From: a phage
Assembly: GCA_017864995.1 (NCBI GenBank)
Contig: GCA_017864995.1_4097.1
Length of the DNA stretch: 64,000 bases
Direction: 5' to 3' (one strand)
Each line of letters opens with the position of its first letter. Within the stretch, counting starts at the first letter, position 1. A model generated the notes under the pieces. That model was not told the origin of the DNA and searched no databases. It was given only the letters and a program-made list of their open reading frames with translations. The translations under genes and the position numbers were made by a program. This document shows, one piece after another, positions 1 to 64,000 of the stretch.

Positions 1-1
1 T

Positions 2-316
2 GGTTGGTACACTGACAGAACCGCTTCGTACTGTATAGATGCTAACTATTTTAAGGGTGGTGATTGTAACCAGTACTTTAATAAATCAAGACGACAGTTG
101 GTGTTTCGTGACCCAACGATTAATCGTCAATATCTATTGGAGAATGGTAAAAGAAATATTGACTATAGACACTTAAGTGTAGTAGAATGTTGTAAATTAC
201 AGGGTATTCCTGTAGATTTCTTTAAAGTGTCTAGTAAGACACAAGCATACAAAATGCTTGGTAATGGATGGACTATGCCAGTTATATCACACTTACTAAG
301 AGAGATATTCTTTTGA
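2..316 (+). CDS. DNA (cytosine-5)-methyltransferase-like protein, C-terminal fragment (5' end outside window)
   Basis: Frame open from window edge to stop at 314-316; motifs ECCKLQGIPVDF and LGNGWTMPV resemble C5-MTase C-terminal motifs (RLQGFPDDF / GNxVxVPV). Confidence 0.5.
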   Translation, partial: GWYTDRTASYCIDANYFKGGDCNQYFNKSRRQLVFRDPTINRQYLLENGKRNIDYRHLSVVECCKLQGIPVDFFKVSSKTQAYKMLGNGWTMPVISHLLREIFF

Positions 317-318
317 AC

Positions 319-798
319 ATGAAGAACTACCCCACCTATACTGAACGTGTAATGAAATTTCAACGTCAGTCATCAAAGGAAGAATTAGAATTTAATTTGT
401 ACTATCCTAATATTGGTGATGAGGTATTCTATTGTTCTCATACAAAGAATGGAACTTTACTTAAATCCGGTAAAGGTATTATTGTTGATATGATTCGCAC
501 TTTCAAAGGTAAACTTAATGTAATGTACAAAGTACAAGATTCAAGTACTGAGTGCATTCATGAAGTGATGCATAATATACCTGCATATCCAAAGGATTTT
601 GTTGAGCTAATATCTCGAAGGGAGAAACCTATGTTTTATTGTGGTTATGACAAACTAACCAAACAAATTATTCCTAATACTATGGGAAAATTTAAAAGTG
701 ATGTTAAAACTGAACTTAATAAGAAATTAGGTTCATCATGGGAAACTGAAAACGAATTCATCGAAATTCGTTTGATTGAAGTTACTATACTCGATTAA
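319..798 (+). CDS. hypothetical protein
   Basis: ATG 3 nt after upstream stop; track ORF 268-798 trimmed to first in-phase ATG after the preceding gene. Confidence 0.6.
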   Translation: MKNYPTYTERVMKFQRQSSKEELEFNLYYPNIGDEVFYCSHTKNGTLLKSGKGIIVDMIRTFKGKLNVMYKVQDSSTECIHEVMHNIPAYPKDFVELISRREKPMFYCGYDKLTKQIIPNTMGKFKSDVKTELNKKLGSSWETENEFIEIRLIEVTILD

Positions 799-804
799 TT
801 ACAG

Positions 805-828
805 ATCCACGCTATGCGTGGATTTTTC
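805..828 (+). terminator. rho-independent terminator
   Basis: Hairpin atccacgc-tat-gcgtggat followed by TTTTT. Confidence 0.6.
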
Positions 829-840
829 ATAGGTGCATAT

Positions 841-60694: not shown

Positions 60695-60770
60695 ATTTTC
60701 CTCCTTTATTCATTATACTATATTTAATCAAAAAAAGAAATGCCAGTACTTGAGTACTGGCATTTTAATT
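60695..60770 (-). promoter_or_regulatory. conserved intergenic cassette
   Basis: Hairpin tgccagtac-ttga-gtactggca (60741-60762) plus conserved box. Confidence 0.6.
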
Positions 60771-61925
60771 TTAACTCGGTGTAACTATTTTTTTAAATAA
60801 TCCTGTATTTCCGGCATTTTCTTCTTCATACGGAATTGTACCCATACCAGCAGTTCTACTACCATTCCCTGAACCATATAATTCACCGTTTTTTAACATG
60901 AATGTTATCATATAACCATGTGTCATTTTATCATATGGAACTGGTTCAGTTATATTAGTACATGCACGCCATGTTTTAATAACATTAGAGTTCGTTATTC
61001 CATCTCCAGAAGCGTTTCCACGCCCAGCGAAATACCATATACCACCTGCTCTAACGTGTGCTTCATAATTAGAACCACCTATGTAATCAATCGCAGTACT
61101 AGGAATACTAGAAGCTGGTATCTTTGTGATTGTTCTAAGACTGTTAATAGTGCCATCAGTGCCATCACCCAACTGTCCATCTATTTGTGAACCGAATACA
61201 TATAGCCCATCACTCTTTAATACGTAATTAGCACTATATGCATTTTCCGAATTTATCTGTAATACTCCAGTAGTAACAGTAGTCAATGTGGTAGTTGTGG
61301 TAGTTGTACCAGTCGAACCAATACTAGATTTATTCCCACTGTACTTTAATGTTCCATCATTGTATAATACAAATGAAGCATTATTCGCGGTTACACCAAT
61401 ATCTTTAACATCAACTTCTGGGGTCAATGTCAGTACTGATACTCTTTGTCCAACAGCCCCAGTAAAAACTTCACCGTTGTTATTGTCACCCATCTTATAT
61501 AATTTATTATCTATTGTTAATAATAATGTAACGCCGTTTCCTATAACTATTTTACTATATGTGTCATTCACATTATTAAAAATACCAAGTATTTCTGTCC
61601 ATACACGATAAGTAGTATTAACACCACGATAGATTTGAGTACCAGTACTCCACCATGTGCCATCATTTTTACGTACTAATATTCCTTGTGTATCACCAGT
61701 AGTCCAAAATTCCTTTACATCAGTTAAACATAAAACCCACTCTTCAACTATAGTAGGAGAACTACTACCAGTACCTAATTGATAGTAAAAATTATGCCCT
61801 CTGCCATATAACCTTCCGTCTTCTAATAAAATAAACACATTATTCTGTAAAACTTTTACCATCTTTATACCAACTGGTACAGGTGCTTCATTCCCATAAT
61901 CAAACATTCTAACAAAAGGTAACAT
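60771..61925 (-). CDS. RCC1-like repeat (beta-propeller) protein, paralog 8
   Basis: Start at conserved MLPFVRMFDYGN (384 aa); contains Thr-run TGTTTTTTTLTTVTTG. Confidence 0.8.
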   Translation of the reverse strand: MLPFVRMFDYGNEAPVPVGIKMVKVLQNNVFILLEDGRLYGRGHNFYYQLGTGSSSPTIVEEWVLCLTDVKEFWTTGDTQGILVRKNDGTWWSTGTQIYRGVNTTYRVWTEILGIFNNVNDTYSKIVIGNGVTLLLTIDNKLYKMGDNNNGEVFTGAVGQRVSVLTLTPEVDVKDIGVTANNASFVLYNDGTLKYSGNKSSIGSTGTTTTTTTLTTVTTGVLQINSENAYSANYVLKSDGLYVFGSQIDGQLGDGTDGTINSLRTITKIPASSIPSTAIDYIGGSNYEAHVRAGGIWYFAGRGNASGDGITNSNVIKTWRACTNITEPVPYDKMTHGYMITFMLKNGELYGSGNGSRTAGMGTIPYEEENAGNTGLFKKIVTPS

Positions 61926-61995
61926 ATTTCCTCCTTTATTCATTATACTATATTTAATCAAAAAGAATGCCAGTACTTGAGTACTGGCATTGTGT
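61926..61995 (-). promoter_or_regulatory. conserved intergenic cassette
   Basis: Hairpin tgccagtac-ttga-gtactggca (61968-61989) plus conserved box. Confidence 0.6.
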
Positions 61996-63175
61996 TTATC
62001 TAAAAGGAACGCACTTTTTGAATTTATATATATATCCAGTCTCACCTTGTTCAGTAAAATACCCAGGGTTTCCAGTCCAGTATAAATCCTCACCTATACT
62101 AACTACCGATACTGAACCATTACCAATCGTACCAAACCACTCAACATGTGATAAGTCAACACTATCATCAAAGAATTCTATTGGTAATATTGAACCATAA
62201 TTCCCAGAGACTGCGTTGCGGCCTAAACCAGCACCATTAGAATTATATCCCTTACCATTCGTATTAATAATGTTAGTACTGGATTTTATTGCATTAACAT
62301 AGGATACTGGTGAAAGTTTATCGAATGAATTTGCTGTTATATCGGTATAGGGATTGGTAGTAAATGATGACCTTATTATACCAGTATTTTCAGAACCACC
62401 TATAGTCAACTGTGTGTTCCAACCAGCCGCCATTAAAGACAAAGCAGATGTACTACTTTGAACAATCAAACGTGTTACCCATCGTGTAGCTTGTACTGCA
62501 ATTACATGAGAACTACCAAGATTCAATGCAGTAAAACTAGTAATAGGCTTATTATCACCGGTTCCTAATTGATAAAAAGTATTCTCACCACAACGATAAT
62601 ATATACCATCTTTTATATAGTGAAAGTTTCTGCTCATTTCACTAGATGCAATTGCAGATACACTAGTGTCAATTAAGAGTGGAGATGTAATTGGTGCAGT
62701 TGCTGTACCCAATTCACTTGCACCATTCATGCCTATACCATATAACTGCCCGTCACTTGTTAGTATTAACATGGAATTGTTAGTTCCGGTTGATGATGTT
62801 ATTTTTATATCTTTTATTGAACTCGGAGAAATAAATCCAAAATATGATTCACAACGAGTCCATGTTGAAACCGAAGATGATATACCAAAAACTGAGTTAG
62901 TCCCACTATAGTACAATTCCCCTTGTTTTGTTCTAATTATAGTACAATATAGAGAACTCCAGAAATCATCAACACTATAAGGACATAAAACCCATCTATC
63001 CAAAAAAGATGAACCAGTAACTCCCATTTTTGCTGATTGGTTTCCGTCCACGCATATATAATGACCCATCACTGTATAATACGCTTATTGAATTTTCATC
63101 ACTATTAATTTTAACAACAGTATCTTTGACAGGGGCAATATTCCCATAATCAAATAATCTAACAAAAGGTAACAT
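61996..63175 (-). pseudogene. RCC1-like paralog 9 interrupted by a +1 frameshift near its 5' end
   Basis: Conserved start MLPFVRLFDYGN at 63173-63175 is in a frame that terminates after about 50 codons; main 358-aa ORF is one frame over, junction at ttatatatgcgtgg (about 63055). Confidence 0.55.
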
Positions 63176-63245
63176 ATATTCCTCCTTTATTCATTATACT
63201 ATATTTAATAAAAAAGAAAAGCCAGTACTGAGTACTGGCATTATG
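63176..63245 (-). promoter_or_regulatory. conserved intergenic cassette
   Basis: Hairpin gccagtac-tga-gtactggc (63221-63239) plus conserved box. Confidence 0.6.
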
Positions 63246-64000
63246 TTATTTTGGTAAATCAATTTTAGTAAAGACTGCAACATCTGCACTTGCACCTGGA
63301 ATGGCGTAATACGATCCAGTACTATATACATTCCCGTCTTTGGTTAATAATGATGTTAATCCGTCACTAAAAGCAACATCACTAATCTCACTAACTTCTA
63401 CAGGTAATTGTAAATTAGCAGCACTATAGATAGCACCCGTTTGAGAATTGTTTAATCCCAAACCACGGTTTCCCCCAATACCTTTCTGATATGCACTAGT
63501 TAATATAATTTGCGTAGCCGTGCTTGTTGCCTCTGAATTTGTCATAAACAAAGGTGAATTATTAGGTAAAGTACTTACAGGAACTGCTTTGAATGTAGTT
63601 GAATCTGAACTAAGAAAGTTTGGAGTTGTACCACATGTGAAATATGATGTACCATTATAGTAATTGAGTGTATGTCCACCAATAGCTGCATCTATTACAC
63701 CAGAACTACGCAGTCCCCAAATGTTAACTTGTGTTCTGTTCCCTGTGCCATGTAATCCACGGTCATTCCACCCTGAACTATATAACTTATTATCTATGCT
63801 AATATACATACTATCATTAGGAGTAGACATAACTTTACGCACATTAGAAGCACATAGTGTTAATGTATATATTGATGAAGAACCAATCCCCAATACACCA
63901 CGGTATCCATTAGCCCCAGCACCATAGAGTACTGAACTTGAACTGAGTACAAATATTACACCACCATTGCATACAATATTAGCAATTTGATTCACAGGAA
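63246..64000 (-). CDS. RCC1-like repeat protein, paralog 10 (5' end beyond window)
   Basis: ORF open to the window edge; RCC1-like G/S/N/T-rich repeats; N-terminus not visible. Confidence 0.7.
   Translation of the reverse strand, partial: PVNQIANIVCNGGVIFVLSSSSVLYGAGANGYRGVLGIGSSSIYTLTLCASNVRKVMSTPNDSMYISIDNKLYSSGWNDRGLHGTGNRTQVNIWGLRSSGVIDAAIGGHTLNYYNGTSYFTCGTTPNFLSSDSTTFKAVPVSTLPNNSPLFMTNSEATSTATQIILTSAYQKGIGGNRGLGLNNSQTGAIYSAANLQLPVEVSEISDVAFSDGLTSLLTKDGNVYSTGSYYAIPGASADVAVFTKIDLPK

Follow-up and report, generated by a model that had tools for sequence, protein, structure and literature searches.

Genomic setting and abundance of AGTACT

The stretch analyzed here (hereafter the window; contig GCA_017864995.1_4097.1, 64,000 bp, 34.8% G+C) comes from an Asteriusvirus (Rak2-like) jumbo coliphage, and our subject is the palindromic hexamer AGTACT, which is scattered through it in great excess. 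The window is 97-99% identical to the Asteriusvirus jumbo coliphages WPEC5, WPEC3, fEgEco12 and TH47, and about 84% identical to slurp01, PBECO4 and SP27. Its genes, called crudely as the longest ATG-initiated open reading frames, switch from the plus to the minus strand at about 51 kb, and their annotation is almost wholly hypothetical; the recognizable features are a sigma factor, HNH endonucleases, a virion protein, six tRNAs and an array of RCC1-like paralogues.

The window holds 184 copies of AGTACT, with a mean spacing of 349 bp, against 21.8 expected from base composition, 20.2 under a dinucleotide model and 40.5 under an order-2 Markov model, and no other hexamer has a higher z-score. 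The many-fold over-representation claimed in an earlier note on this sequence is borne out by the count (184 versus about 21 expected in 64 kb); a cluster that the note had put at about nine copies around 10.7-12.3 kb comes to 11 sites within 10.69-12.26 kb. Order-3 and order-4 models return higher expectations (77 and 158, respectively) only because AGTAC and GTACT, two of its sub-words, are in excess too. The density is even over the window, with a 7.6- to 10.3-fold excess in each segment of about 13 kb, and the distances between sites are Poisson-like, close to exponential (coefficient of variation 0.92), with no 10-11 bp helical phasing found. Such spacing fits independent dispersed sites, and cooperative or phased arrays of AGTACT were rejected on these grounds. 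RNA hairpins formed by paired sites were also rejected, close pairs being barely above chance (126 versus 111).

The preferred sequence extends symmetrically beyond the hexamer. A C precedes 41% of the 184 sites and a G follows 50%, with weaker t-t and a-a preferences further out and an information content of about zero past 3 bp on either side, giving the extended consensus ttC-AGTACT-Gaa, i.e., ttCAGTACTGaa. The octamer CAGTACTG alone is present 37 times, compared with 1.0 ± 0.97 in dinucleotide-preserving shuffles. Oriented along transcription, the sites have upstream flanks whose composition is the complement of that downstream, without skew, the pattern expected of a reader of duplex DNA with two-fold symmetry. 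The GTAC core is enriched 2.6-fold, and among words one mismatch away from AGTACT only those keeping GTAC are enriched (1.7- to 3.2-fold), those that break the core standing at about 1-fold; the outermost substitutions reach 3.2-fold (AGTACA) and 2.8-fold (TGTACT), compared with 0.4- to 1.6-fold for changes at positions 2-5.

The excess arises at the DNA level

Predicted genes hold 146 of the sites (79%), intergenic DNA holds 37 and one lies at a gene boundary, the intergenic density (4.6 per kb) exceeding that within genes (2.6 per kb). All three frames contribute, with 73 sites in frame 0 (Ser-Thr), 26 in frame 1 and 47 in frame 2, and the excess is seen on both gene orientations. Synonymous shuffling leaves 43.4 ± 6.2 in-gene sites, 3.4-fold fewer than the 146 observed, and codon shuffling leaves 25.1 ± 5.2, which places the enrichment beyond the codon-pair bias that the earlier note had raised as a possible source. 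Codon, codon-pair or dipeptide bias was therefore rejected as the cause, since the shuffles fall short and all frames as well as intergenic DNA are enriched.

The same signal leaves its mark on the encoded proteins. Ser-Thr dipeptides are written AGT-ACT in 49-52% of cases versus 15% expected, and the S-T dipeptide is itself over-represented 1.5- to 1.6-fold and V-L about 1.35-fold, with the reverse T-S at expectation, which indicates that the AGTACT pressure reaches into protein sequence. AGT is the commonest serine codon (34%) and ACT the commonest threonine codon (44%), and we infer that the phage tRNA-Ser(GCU) and tRNA-Thr(UGU) serve codon families inflated by in-frame AGT-ACT. A signal strong enough to reshape proteins may in this way explain part of the phage tRNA set.

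Individual sites are preserved over evolutionary time. In 33.7 kb aligned with slurp01 at 84.8% identity, 74 of 95 aligned AGTACT sites (78%) are intact, compared with 49% of all hexamers and 54% of hexamers with the same composition; from slurp01 to the window, 73 of 100 are intact. About a quarter of the sites have turned over between the two phages, and those lost show no C-to-T bias. Where the amino acid is conserved, codons inside AGTACT are identical to those of slurp01 in 101 of 108 cases (94%), against 582 of 738 (79%) for the same four codons elsewhere (p = 1.2e-4), and synonymous positions in the motif evolve about three times more slowly. The question in the earlier note of whether AGTACT is preserved at synonymous positions thus receives a positive answer, and its description of a selected palindrome, in the sense of one that is selected for, or otherwise actively kept, as DNA, agrees with the use of all frames and of intergenic DNA, the symmetric flanks, the slower synonymous change, the conserved sites and the clade-wide occurrence described below.

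Promoter, terminator and repeat contexts

The contexts in which the earlier note had placed AGTACT all exist, and most of them account for little of the excess (coordinates in Table 1). Its 14-bp palindromes are present in two copies of ATTCAGTACTGAAT. In promoter spacers, AGTTCAGTACTGTATAAT was found at 10758 and 11179, and the intergenic promoter-spacer form reads TTGAC...AGTACTgTATAAT; as an explanation this context fails, with AGTACT in 3 of 36 sigma70-like promoters of the window and in 8 of 98 in TH47. Terminator stems of the form GCCAGTAC...GTACTGGC occur at 54.3-63.2 kb, where near-identical GCCAGTACT..AGTACTGGC hairpins stand behind most genes of the minus-strand paralogue array, about 1.2 kb apart, but the window holds only about eight hairpins bearing AGTACT. 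The in-frame Phe-Gln (F-Q) context TTTCAGTACTG is real and occurs twice, too seldom to explain the motif.

The sole repeat family found around AGTACT is a promoter cassette of 42 nt in four copies, which carries the hexamer in its spacer with the trailing TG making an extended -10, sits upstream of small genes and tRNA-Ser, and recalls the mobile early-promoter cassettes of T4-type phages. Promoter and terminator cassettes together hold fewer than 25 of the 184 sites. A role as promoter or terminator element was rejected, such sites being a small minority and 79% being intragenic; the promoter spacers and terminator stems look like free sequence that has been filled with AGTACT, and not like its purpose.

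Distribution among related phages and avoidance of other words

To describe the spread of the motif we counted it over 350 kb of TH47 and in loci of 17-48 kb sampled from other relatives, the expectations for all of these being based on base composition only. TH47 carries 909 copies of AGTACT versus 118 expected and 203 of CAGTACTG versus 3.6 (56-fold). The observed-to-expected ratio for AGTACT is 7.7 in WPEC5, 9.9 in 121Q, 8.8 in slurp01 and 11.9 in EJP2, and reaches 9.5 in Klebsiella phage RaK2 (Alcyoneusvirus), 17.8 in Cronobacter phage GAP32 (Mimasvirus), 19.2 in Yersinia phage fHe-Yen9-04 (Eneladusvirus), 13.9 in Salmonella phage Munch and 12.8 in Erwinia phage Hallingskeid. Similarly, the Xanthomonas vesicatoria phages XaC1 and XbC2, whose host is taken from database records, contain 93 versus 8.2 and 98 versus 8.1 copies, respectively, and no GCGC. 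The distant relatives XacN1 (0/6.3) and PA5oct (1/8.4) show no excess and both contain GCGC, and in T4, which shares the host, AGTACT (5/13.4) and GTAC (53/124) are under-represented, leading us to reject a general bias of E. coli phages or one driven by the host. With the Xanthomonas phages enriched and T4, XacN1 and PA5oct not, the trait tracks phage lineage and not host order.

This enrichment stands in a genome that is otherwise poor in palindromes. The window lacks some 25-28 of the 64 palindromic hexamers, its next best palindrome being TGTACA at 2.2-fold, and the TH47 genome lacks 23, including GGTACC and CGTACG despite the enriched GTAC. The tetramer GCGC is missing from the window (0 versus 58 expected), from 350 kb of TH47 (0 versus 327) and from all core Rak2-like loci sampled, including those of the Xanthomonas phages. 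Every core Rak2-like genus sampled combines an AGTACT excess of about 8- to 19-fold with absence of GCGC, and absolute GCGC avoidance co-varies with AGTACT enrichment; the avoidance could reflect restriction pressure or a phage nuclease directed at GCGC. In a 50-kb sample of E. coli K-12, AGTACT stands at 0.06 per kb (3 versus 11.6 expected), about 45 times less dense than in the phage, and GCGC at 6.8 per kb, so that, as judged from this sample, the two words separate phage from host DNA almost perfectly. XacN1 has a word-avoidance profile unlike that of the core clade: in its 150-175 kb region GATC is absent (0 versus 97 expected), as is AGTACT (0 versus 6.3), and GCGC is present.

A conserved block with AGTACA in place of AGTACT

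Outside the window, an 8.4-kb block of TH47 (71773-80216) contains no AGTACT and a 3.6-fold enrichment of GTAC. Here AGTACA is present in 48 copies versus 3.0 expected, all of them on the sense strand, in all three frames and with the ttC left flank. The block comprises about 16 small genes without Pfam matches, which are mostly not paralogues, and conservation of its AGTACA sites exceeds background only a little. PBECO4 (L021:3526-11219) and 121Q (L022:3287-10871), which were sequenced independently, carry the same block with sharp borders, and an assembly artefact was rejected on this basis; no such block was found in the other loci sampled. In fEgEco12 it occupies roughly 29-38 kb as counted from the left end, immediately inside the 21-kb terminal repeat. 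The block may mean that the signal can be read strand-specifically, or it may have been acquired from a lineage that uses another motif.

A second gap in AGTACT, at TH47 82630-87592, coincides with 19 tiny (70-90 aa) minus-strand paralogues and a strongly negative AT skew. AGTACA occurs there nine times on the plus strand, opposite in orientation to the block, probably through shared ancestry of the paralogues. The notion that this mirror image signals a replication origin or terminus was rejected, the second gap being a paralogue array and the evidence weak.

Candidate readers and methyltransferases

Among host proteins, the nucleoid-occlusion factor SlmA is a dimeric helix-turn-helix protein whose 12-bp site, GTGAGTACTCAC, has an AGTACT core and which needs G1, T2, a purine at position 3, A4 and G5 (PMC3020112). 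Within one mismatch of the SlmA consensus GTRAGYRCTYAC, the window contains 1 match versus 1.4 expected by chance, and of the 16 flank combinations the SlmA-type GAGTACTC is the least frequent (1 of 184). SlmA or another enteric host factor was rejected as the reader, because the flanks are wrong (t-t-C), matches to the SlmA-binding site are at chance and Xanthomonas phages are enriched too.

Bulk hypermodification of the DNA was likewise rejected, since DNA of fEgEco12, 98% identical to the window, is cut as predicted by ten enzymes (PMC13070987). RaK2, like CBB, has genes for both cytosine and adenine methyltransferases (PMC3622015; PMC5259590), and its DNA is reportedly cut only by methylation-insensitive enzymes (PMC3622015). 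Among solved structures, the RaK2 C5 methyltransferase gp194 (PF00145) best matches the catalytic domains of eukaryotic DNMT3A/3B (E = 2e-22); a DNMT3-like enzyme fits the CpG-context 5-methylcytosine reported for RaK2 and is thus not an obvious enzyme for AGTACT. In TH47 the gp194 orthologue (175438-177327, minus strand) is interrupted by an intein of about 340 aa with Hint and LAGLIDADG domains, and this split gene maps about 3 kb beyond the start of the window. The sole adenine methyltransferase found in TH47 is a 185-aa Dam-family protein (PF05869; gene at 48199-48753), which is syntenic and conserved at 42-97% identity in all AGTACT-rich phages sampled, including XaC1 and XbC2.

A proposed self-marking signal and its alternatives

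In sum, AGTACT is a symmetric motif of the DNA itself, specific to this phage lineage whatever the host order and kept by purifying constraint in an otherwise palindrome-purging genome. The reading we favor, albeit with somewhat less than even confidence, is that a symmetric protein encoded by the phage, which binds or modifies DNA, recognizes AGTACT and marks the phage chromosome; both such a reader and the self-marking role are inferred. Selection acting on double-stranded DNA, as opposed to protein or local regulation, would keep AGTACT (in its extended form ttCAGTACTGaa) at about one site per 170-380 bp, a protein of homodimer type would recognize it and tag the whole phage chromosome as 'self', and the word would be written wherever the sequence is free, at synonymous positions, in promoter spacers and in terminator stems. 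The mark might serve protection, the recruitment of replication, recombination or transcription machinery, or the organization of the nucleoid. With the AGTACT-rich phage purged of GCGC and of 23 palindromic hexamers, and the host poor in AGTACT, the two genomes are distinguishable by short words.

Several observations weigh against this reading. Conservation of sites above background would also be expected from repair that restores existing sites, and the comparison with the host relies on a single 50-kb sample of E. coli. The conserved 8-kb block, with no AGTACT and 48 asymmetric AGTACA on the sense strand, is not predicted by a purely symmetric reader of double-stranded DNA. No reader protein was identified among the candidates examined, a systematic search for the reader gene not having been made. 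The C5 methyltransferase was rejected as the cognate enzyme of AGTACT, given its DNMT3-like character and the CpG-context 5-methylcytosine reported for RaK2, and the PF05869 family is widespread in phages (2,211 records), many of which lack an AGTACT excess.

Among the alternatives, ordinary composition, be it codon or codon-pair bias, a repeated protein motif or dispersed repeats that carry AGTACT along, is scarcely credible. The Ser-Thr frame is the commonest (73 of 146), and the four-copy cassette and some eight terminator hairpins do carry the motif, but synonymous and codon shuffles yield 43 and 25 sites versus 146, all frames and intergenic DNA are enriched, fewer than 25 of 184 sites lie in cassettes, the same excess recurs in genera too diverged for DNA alignment, and there is no information beyond about 3 bp to either side. 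It is also very improbable that the sites serve a host protein, notably SlmA, through which the phage would manipulate division or which it would titrate. The SlmA consensus does hold the AGTACT core (PMC3020112) and the hosts of the clade are mostly Enterobacterales; the phage flanks are t-t-C, however, with GAGTACTC at 1 of 184 and near-matches to GTRAGYRCTYAC at 1 versus 1.4 expected, and the Xanthomonas-recorded phages are equally enriched whereas T4, growing on E. coli, is depleted.

The two main rivals, each of which we consider unlikely, concern how the sites are made and which strand is read. AGTACT might be a by-product, without a function of its own, of methylation-linked biased repair, in which an orphan methyltransferase of the phage acting on GTAC or AGTACT is coupled to methyl-directed or very-short-patch-like repair that favors mutations creating or restoring sites, along the lines of the ratchet that Elhai proposed for the cyanobacterial palindromes. 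This would account for one-off variants concentrated at the outer positions (AGTACA 3.2-fold, TGTACT 2.8-fold), as Elhai reported for the highly iterated palindrome HIP1 (PMC4390886), for the Dam-family adenine methyltransferase that is syntenic in every AGTACT-rich phage sampled, for the reported resistance of RaK2 DNA to all but methylation-insensitive enzymes (PMC3622015), and for conservation above background, which a site-restoring process would also yield. However, the precursor words are not depleted (AGTATT 51/42, AATACT 38/39), which led us to reject conversion of these deamination neighbors by very-short-patch-like repair; the sites lost relative to slurp01 lack a C-to-T bias; PF05869 enzymes are common in phages without AGTACT excess (2,211 records); a symmetric methyltransferase ratchet cannot give the strand-specific AGTACA block; and for HIP1, Xu et al. 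favored selection instead (PMC5861425). Alternatively, only one strand might be read: (C)AGTAC would then be the unit, recognized in single-stranded DNA, in RNA or by a polar translocating or priming enzyme, and the palindrome would be its economical two-strand form where no direction is imposed; a primase start, a nicking or clamp-loading site, a polar signal like Chi or KOPS, and an RNase or RNA-binding site would be candidates. The replacement of the palindrome by AGTACA in the conserved block, all 48 copies (versus 3 expected) on the sense strand, points in this direction, and a palindrome inevitably occurs in transcripts of both orientations. Outside the block, however, there is no asymmetry, coding-strand AGTACA (2.3-fold) and TGTACT (1.9-fold) differing as base composition predicts; the palindrome (7.3-fold) stands far above either half-variant, with flanks that are symmetric in the sense orientation; and hairpin-capable close pairs are barely in excess (126 versus 111). 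Moreover, the weak conservation of the AGTACA sites would also fit a block left over from horizontal acquisition, and the mirror-image second gap is a paralogue array whose copies may reflect shared ancestry.

A bolder extension of the self-marking reading, and quite an unlikely one in our estimate, is that AGTACT and GCGC form a two-word barcode of self and non-self, in which the AGTACT reader would protect or organize phage DNA, a GCGC-directed activity would destroy host DNA and the AGTACA block would reveal a polarity of the reader. The densities that such a barcode might exploit are about 2.6-6 AGTACT sites per kb in the phage versus about 0.06 in the host sample, and about 7 GCGC per kb in the host with none in the phage. 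The block might then represent this or a second reader working with polarity, tied to replication, translocation or end-processing near the left genome end. If true, the barcode would give a virus whose DNA is unmodified an identity system written in its sequence.

Comparison with known iterated words

AGTACT is the target of type II restriction enzymes (ScaI and isoschizomers such as Eco255I) and belongs to the type of word read by symmetric dimeric enzymes and methyltransferases. Phages normally purge restriction targets. Unlike the usual targets, AGTACT is enriched 8-fold while others are purged, which implies protection or a benefit that outweighs the risk. Dense 'self' or guidance words are known in Chi (GCTGGTGG), the FtsK-orienting polar sequences (KOPS), the DNA uptake sequences of Neisseria and the uptake signal sequences of Haemophilus, each of which has a dedicated protein reader. 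AGTACT resembles them in being short and dense, with roughly one copy or more per kb. These words are asymmetric and skewed, whereas AGTACT is palindromic with symmetric flanks and no skew, and only the AGTACA block is polar-like. The SlmA-binding site shares the 6-bp core, but the G1 and the position-3 purine that it requires are disfavored in the phage. Unlike dispersed repeats such as repetitive extragenic palindromic elements and miniature inverted-repeat transposable elements, the sites have no conserved sequence far beyond the core.

The closest known phenomenon is HIP1 (GCGATCGC), and AGTACT looks like a virus counterpart of the highly iterated palindromes. Like HIP1 and the alternate cyanobacterial palindromes, it is a short perfect palindrome over-represented throughout the genome, in coding sequence of all frames and in non-coding sequence, with sites conserved between relatives beyond background and one-off variants at the outermost positions (PMC5861425; PMC4390886). 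In both cases the density is about one per gene or higher and the genome encodes orphan methyltransferases, those of the phage being at most candidates for a cognate role. AGTACT differs from HIP1 in residing in a virus and not a cell, in being an AT-rich hexamer (octamer CAGTACTG) and not a GC-rich octamer, in being set amid extreme avoidance of other palindromes and in having a strand-specific variant block. A periodicity of 10-90 kb has been reported for HIP1, and the 350-kb phage genome is too short for that analysis. Our search of the literature for AGTACT, CAGTACTG, GTAC or iterated palindromes in phages, which did not cover the GAP32 genome paper, returned no earlier description.

Palindromes of the HIP1 type have gone unexplained for three decades, in part because they reside in large cellular genomes, and finding such a signal in a culturable group of E. 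coli phages of about 350 kb makes the question directly testable. The clean phylogenetic boundary between presence and absence (core Rak2-like phages versus XacN1 and PA5oct), the natural variant block and the cuttable DNA of fEgEco12 are assets for such work. A signal that reshapes proteins also bears on host prediction from codon usage and on the engineering or recoding of therapeutic jumbo phages. Taken together, the AGTACT enrichment and the total absence of GCGC suggest that these phages tell self from host by sequence words and not by base modification.

Other features of the window

Coordinates of the features mentioned above, together with those of the tRNA genes and the RCC1-like array, are collected in Table 1. 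The minus-strand RCC1-like array runs on into a hotspot of AGTACT at 90-110 kb of TH47.

Table 1. Positions of tRNA genes, AGTACT-bearing elements and other features in the window.
Feature	Position	Strand	Remarks
Six tRNA genes: Ser(UGA), Ser(GCU), Met, Asn, two Thr(UGU)	10055-14127		
tRNA-Ser(GCU)	12274-12363	+	reads AGU/AGC
tRNA-Thr(UGU), two copies	13974-14047; 14054-14127		serve the ACN codons
Promoter cassette CTTGACTAAATAGTTCAGTACTGTATAAT... (CTTGACTAAATAGTTCAGTACTGTATAATG...), 42 nt	10747-10788; 11168-11209; 11479-11520; 12238-12279	+	four-copy direct repeat
Sigma70-like promoter TTGACA-N9-AGTACT-G-TATAAT	28429-28456	+	similar promoter at 43608-43635
Perfect palindrome ATTCAGTACTGAAT, 14 bp	13400-13413; 13521-13534		intergenic, adjoining the tRNA cluster
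Terminator hairpin GCCAGTACT-TA-AGTACTGGC	59478-59497	-	followed by a T-run
Hairpins equivalent to that at 59478-59497	54357-54375; 58255-58274; 60742-60761; 61969-61988; 63221-63239		
Hairpin CCAGTACT-ATAAT-AGTACTGG	51193-51213		between convergent genes; probably a bidirectional terminator
Terminator-like hairpin CCCAGT-CTAGT-ACTGGG	6988-7013	+	followed by T8; one AGTACT inside
TTGAGTACTCAC	26369-26380		sole near-match (1 mismatch) in the window to the SlmA consensus GTRAGYRCTYAC
RCC1-like paralogue array, about 10 tandem genes of 350-450 aa	51221-63830	-	annotated in relatives as RCC1-repeat or 'GTPase regulator' proteins

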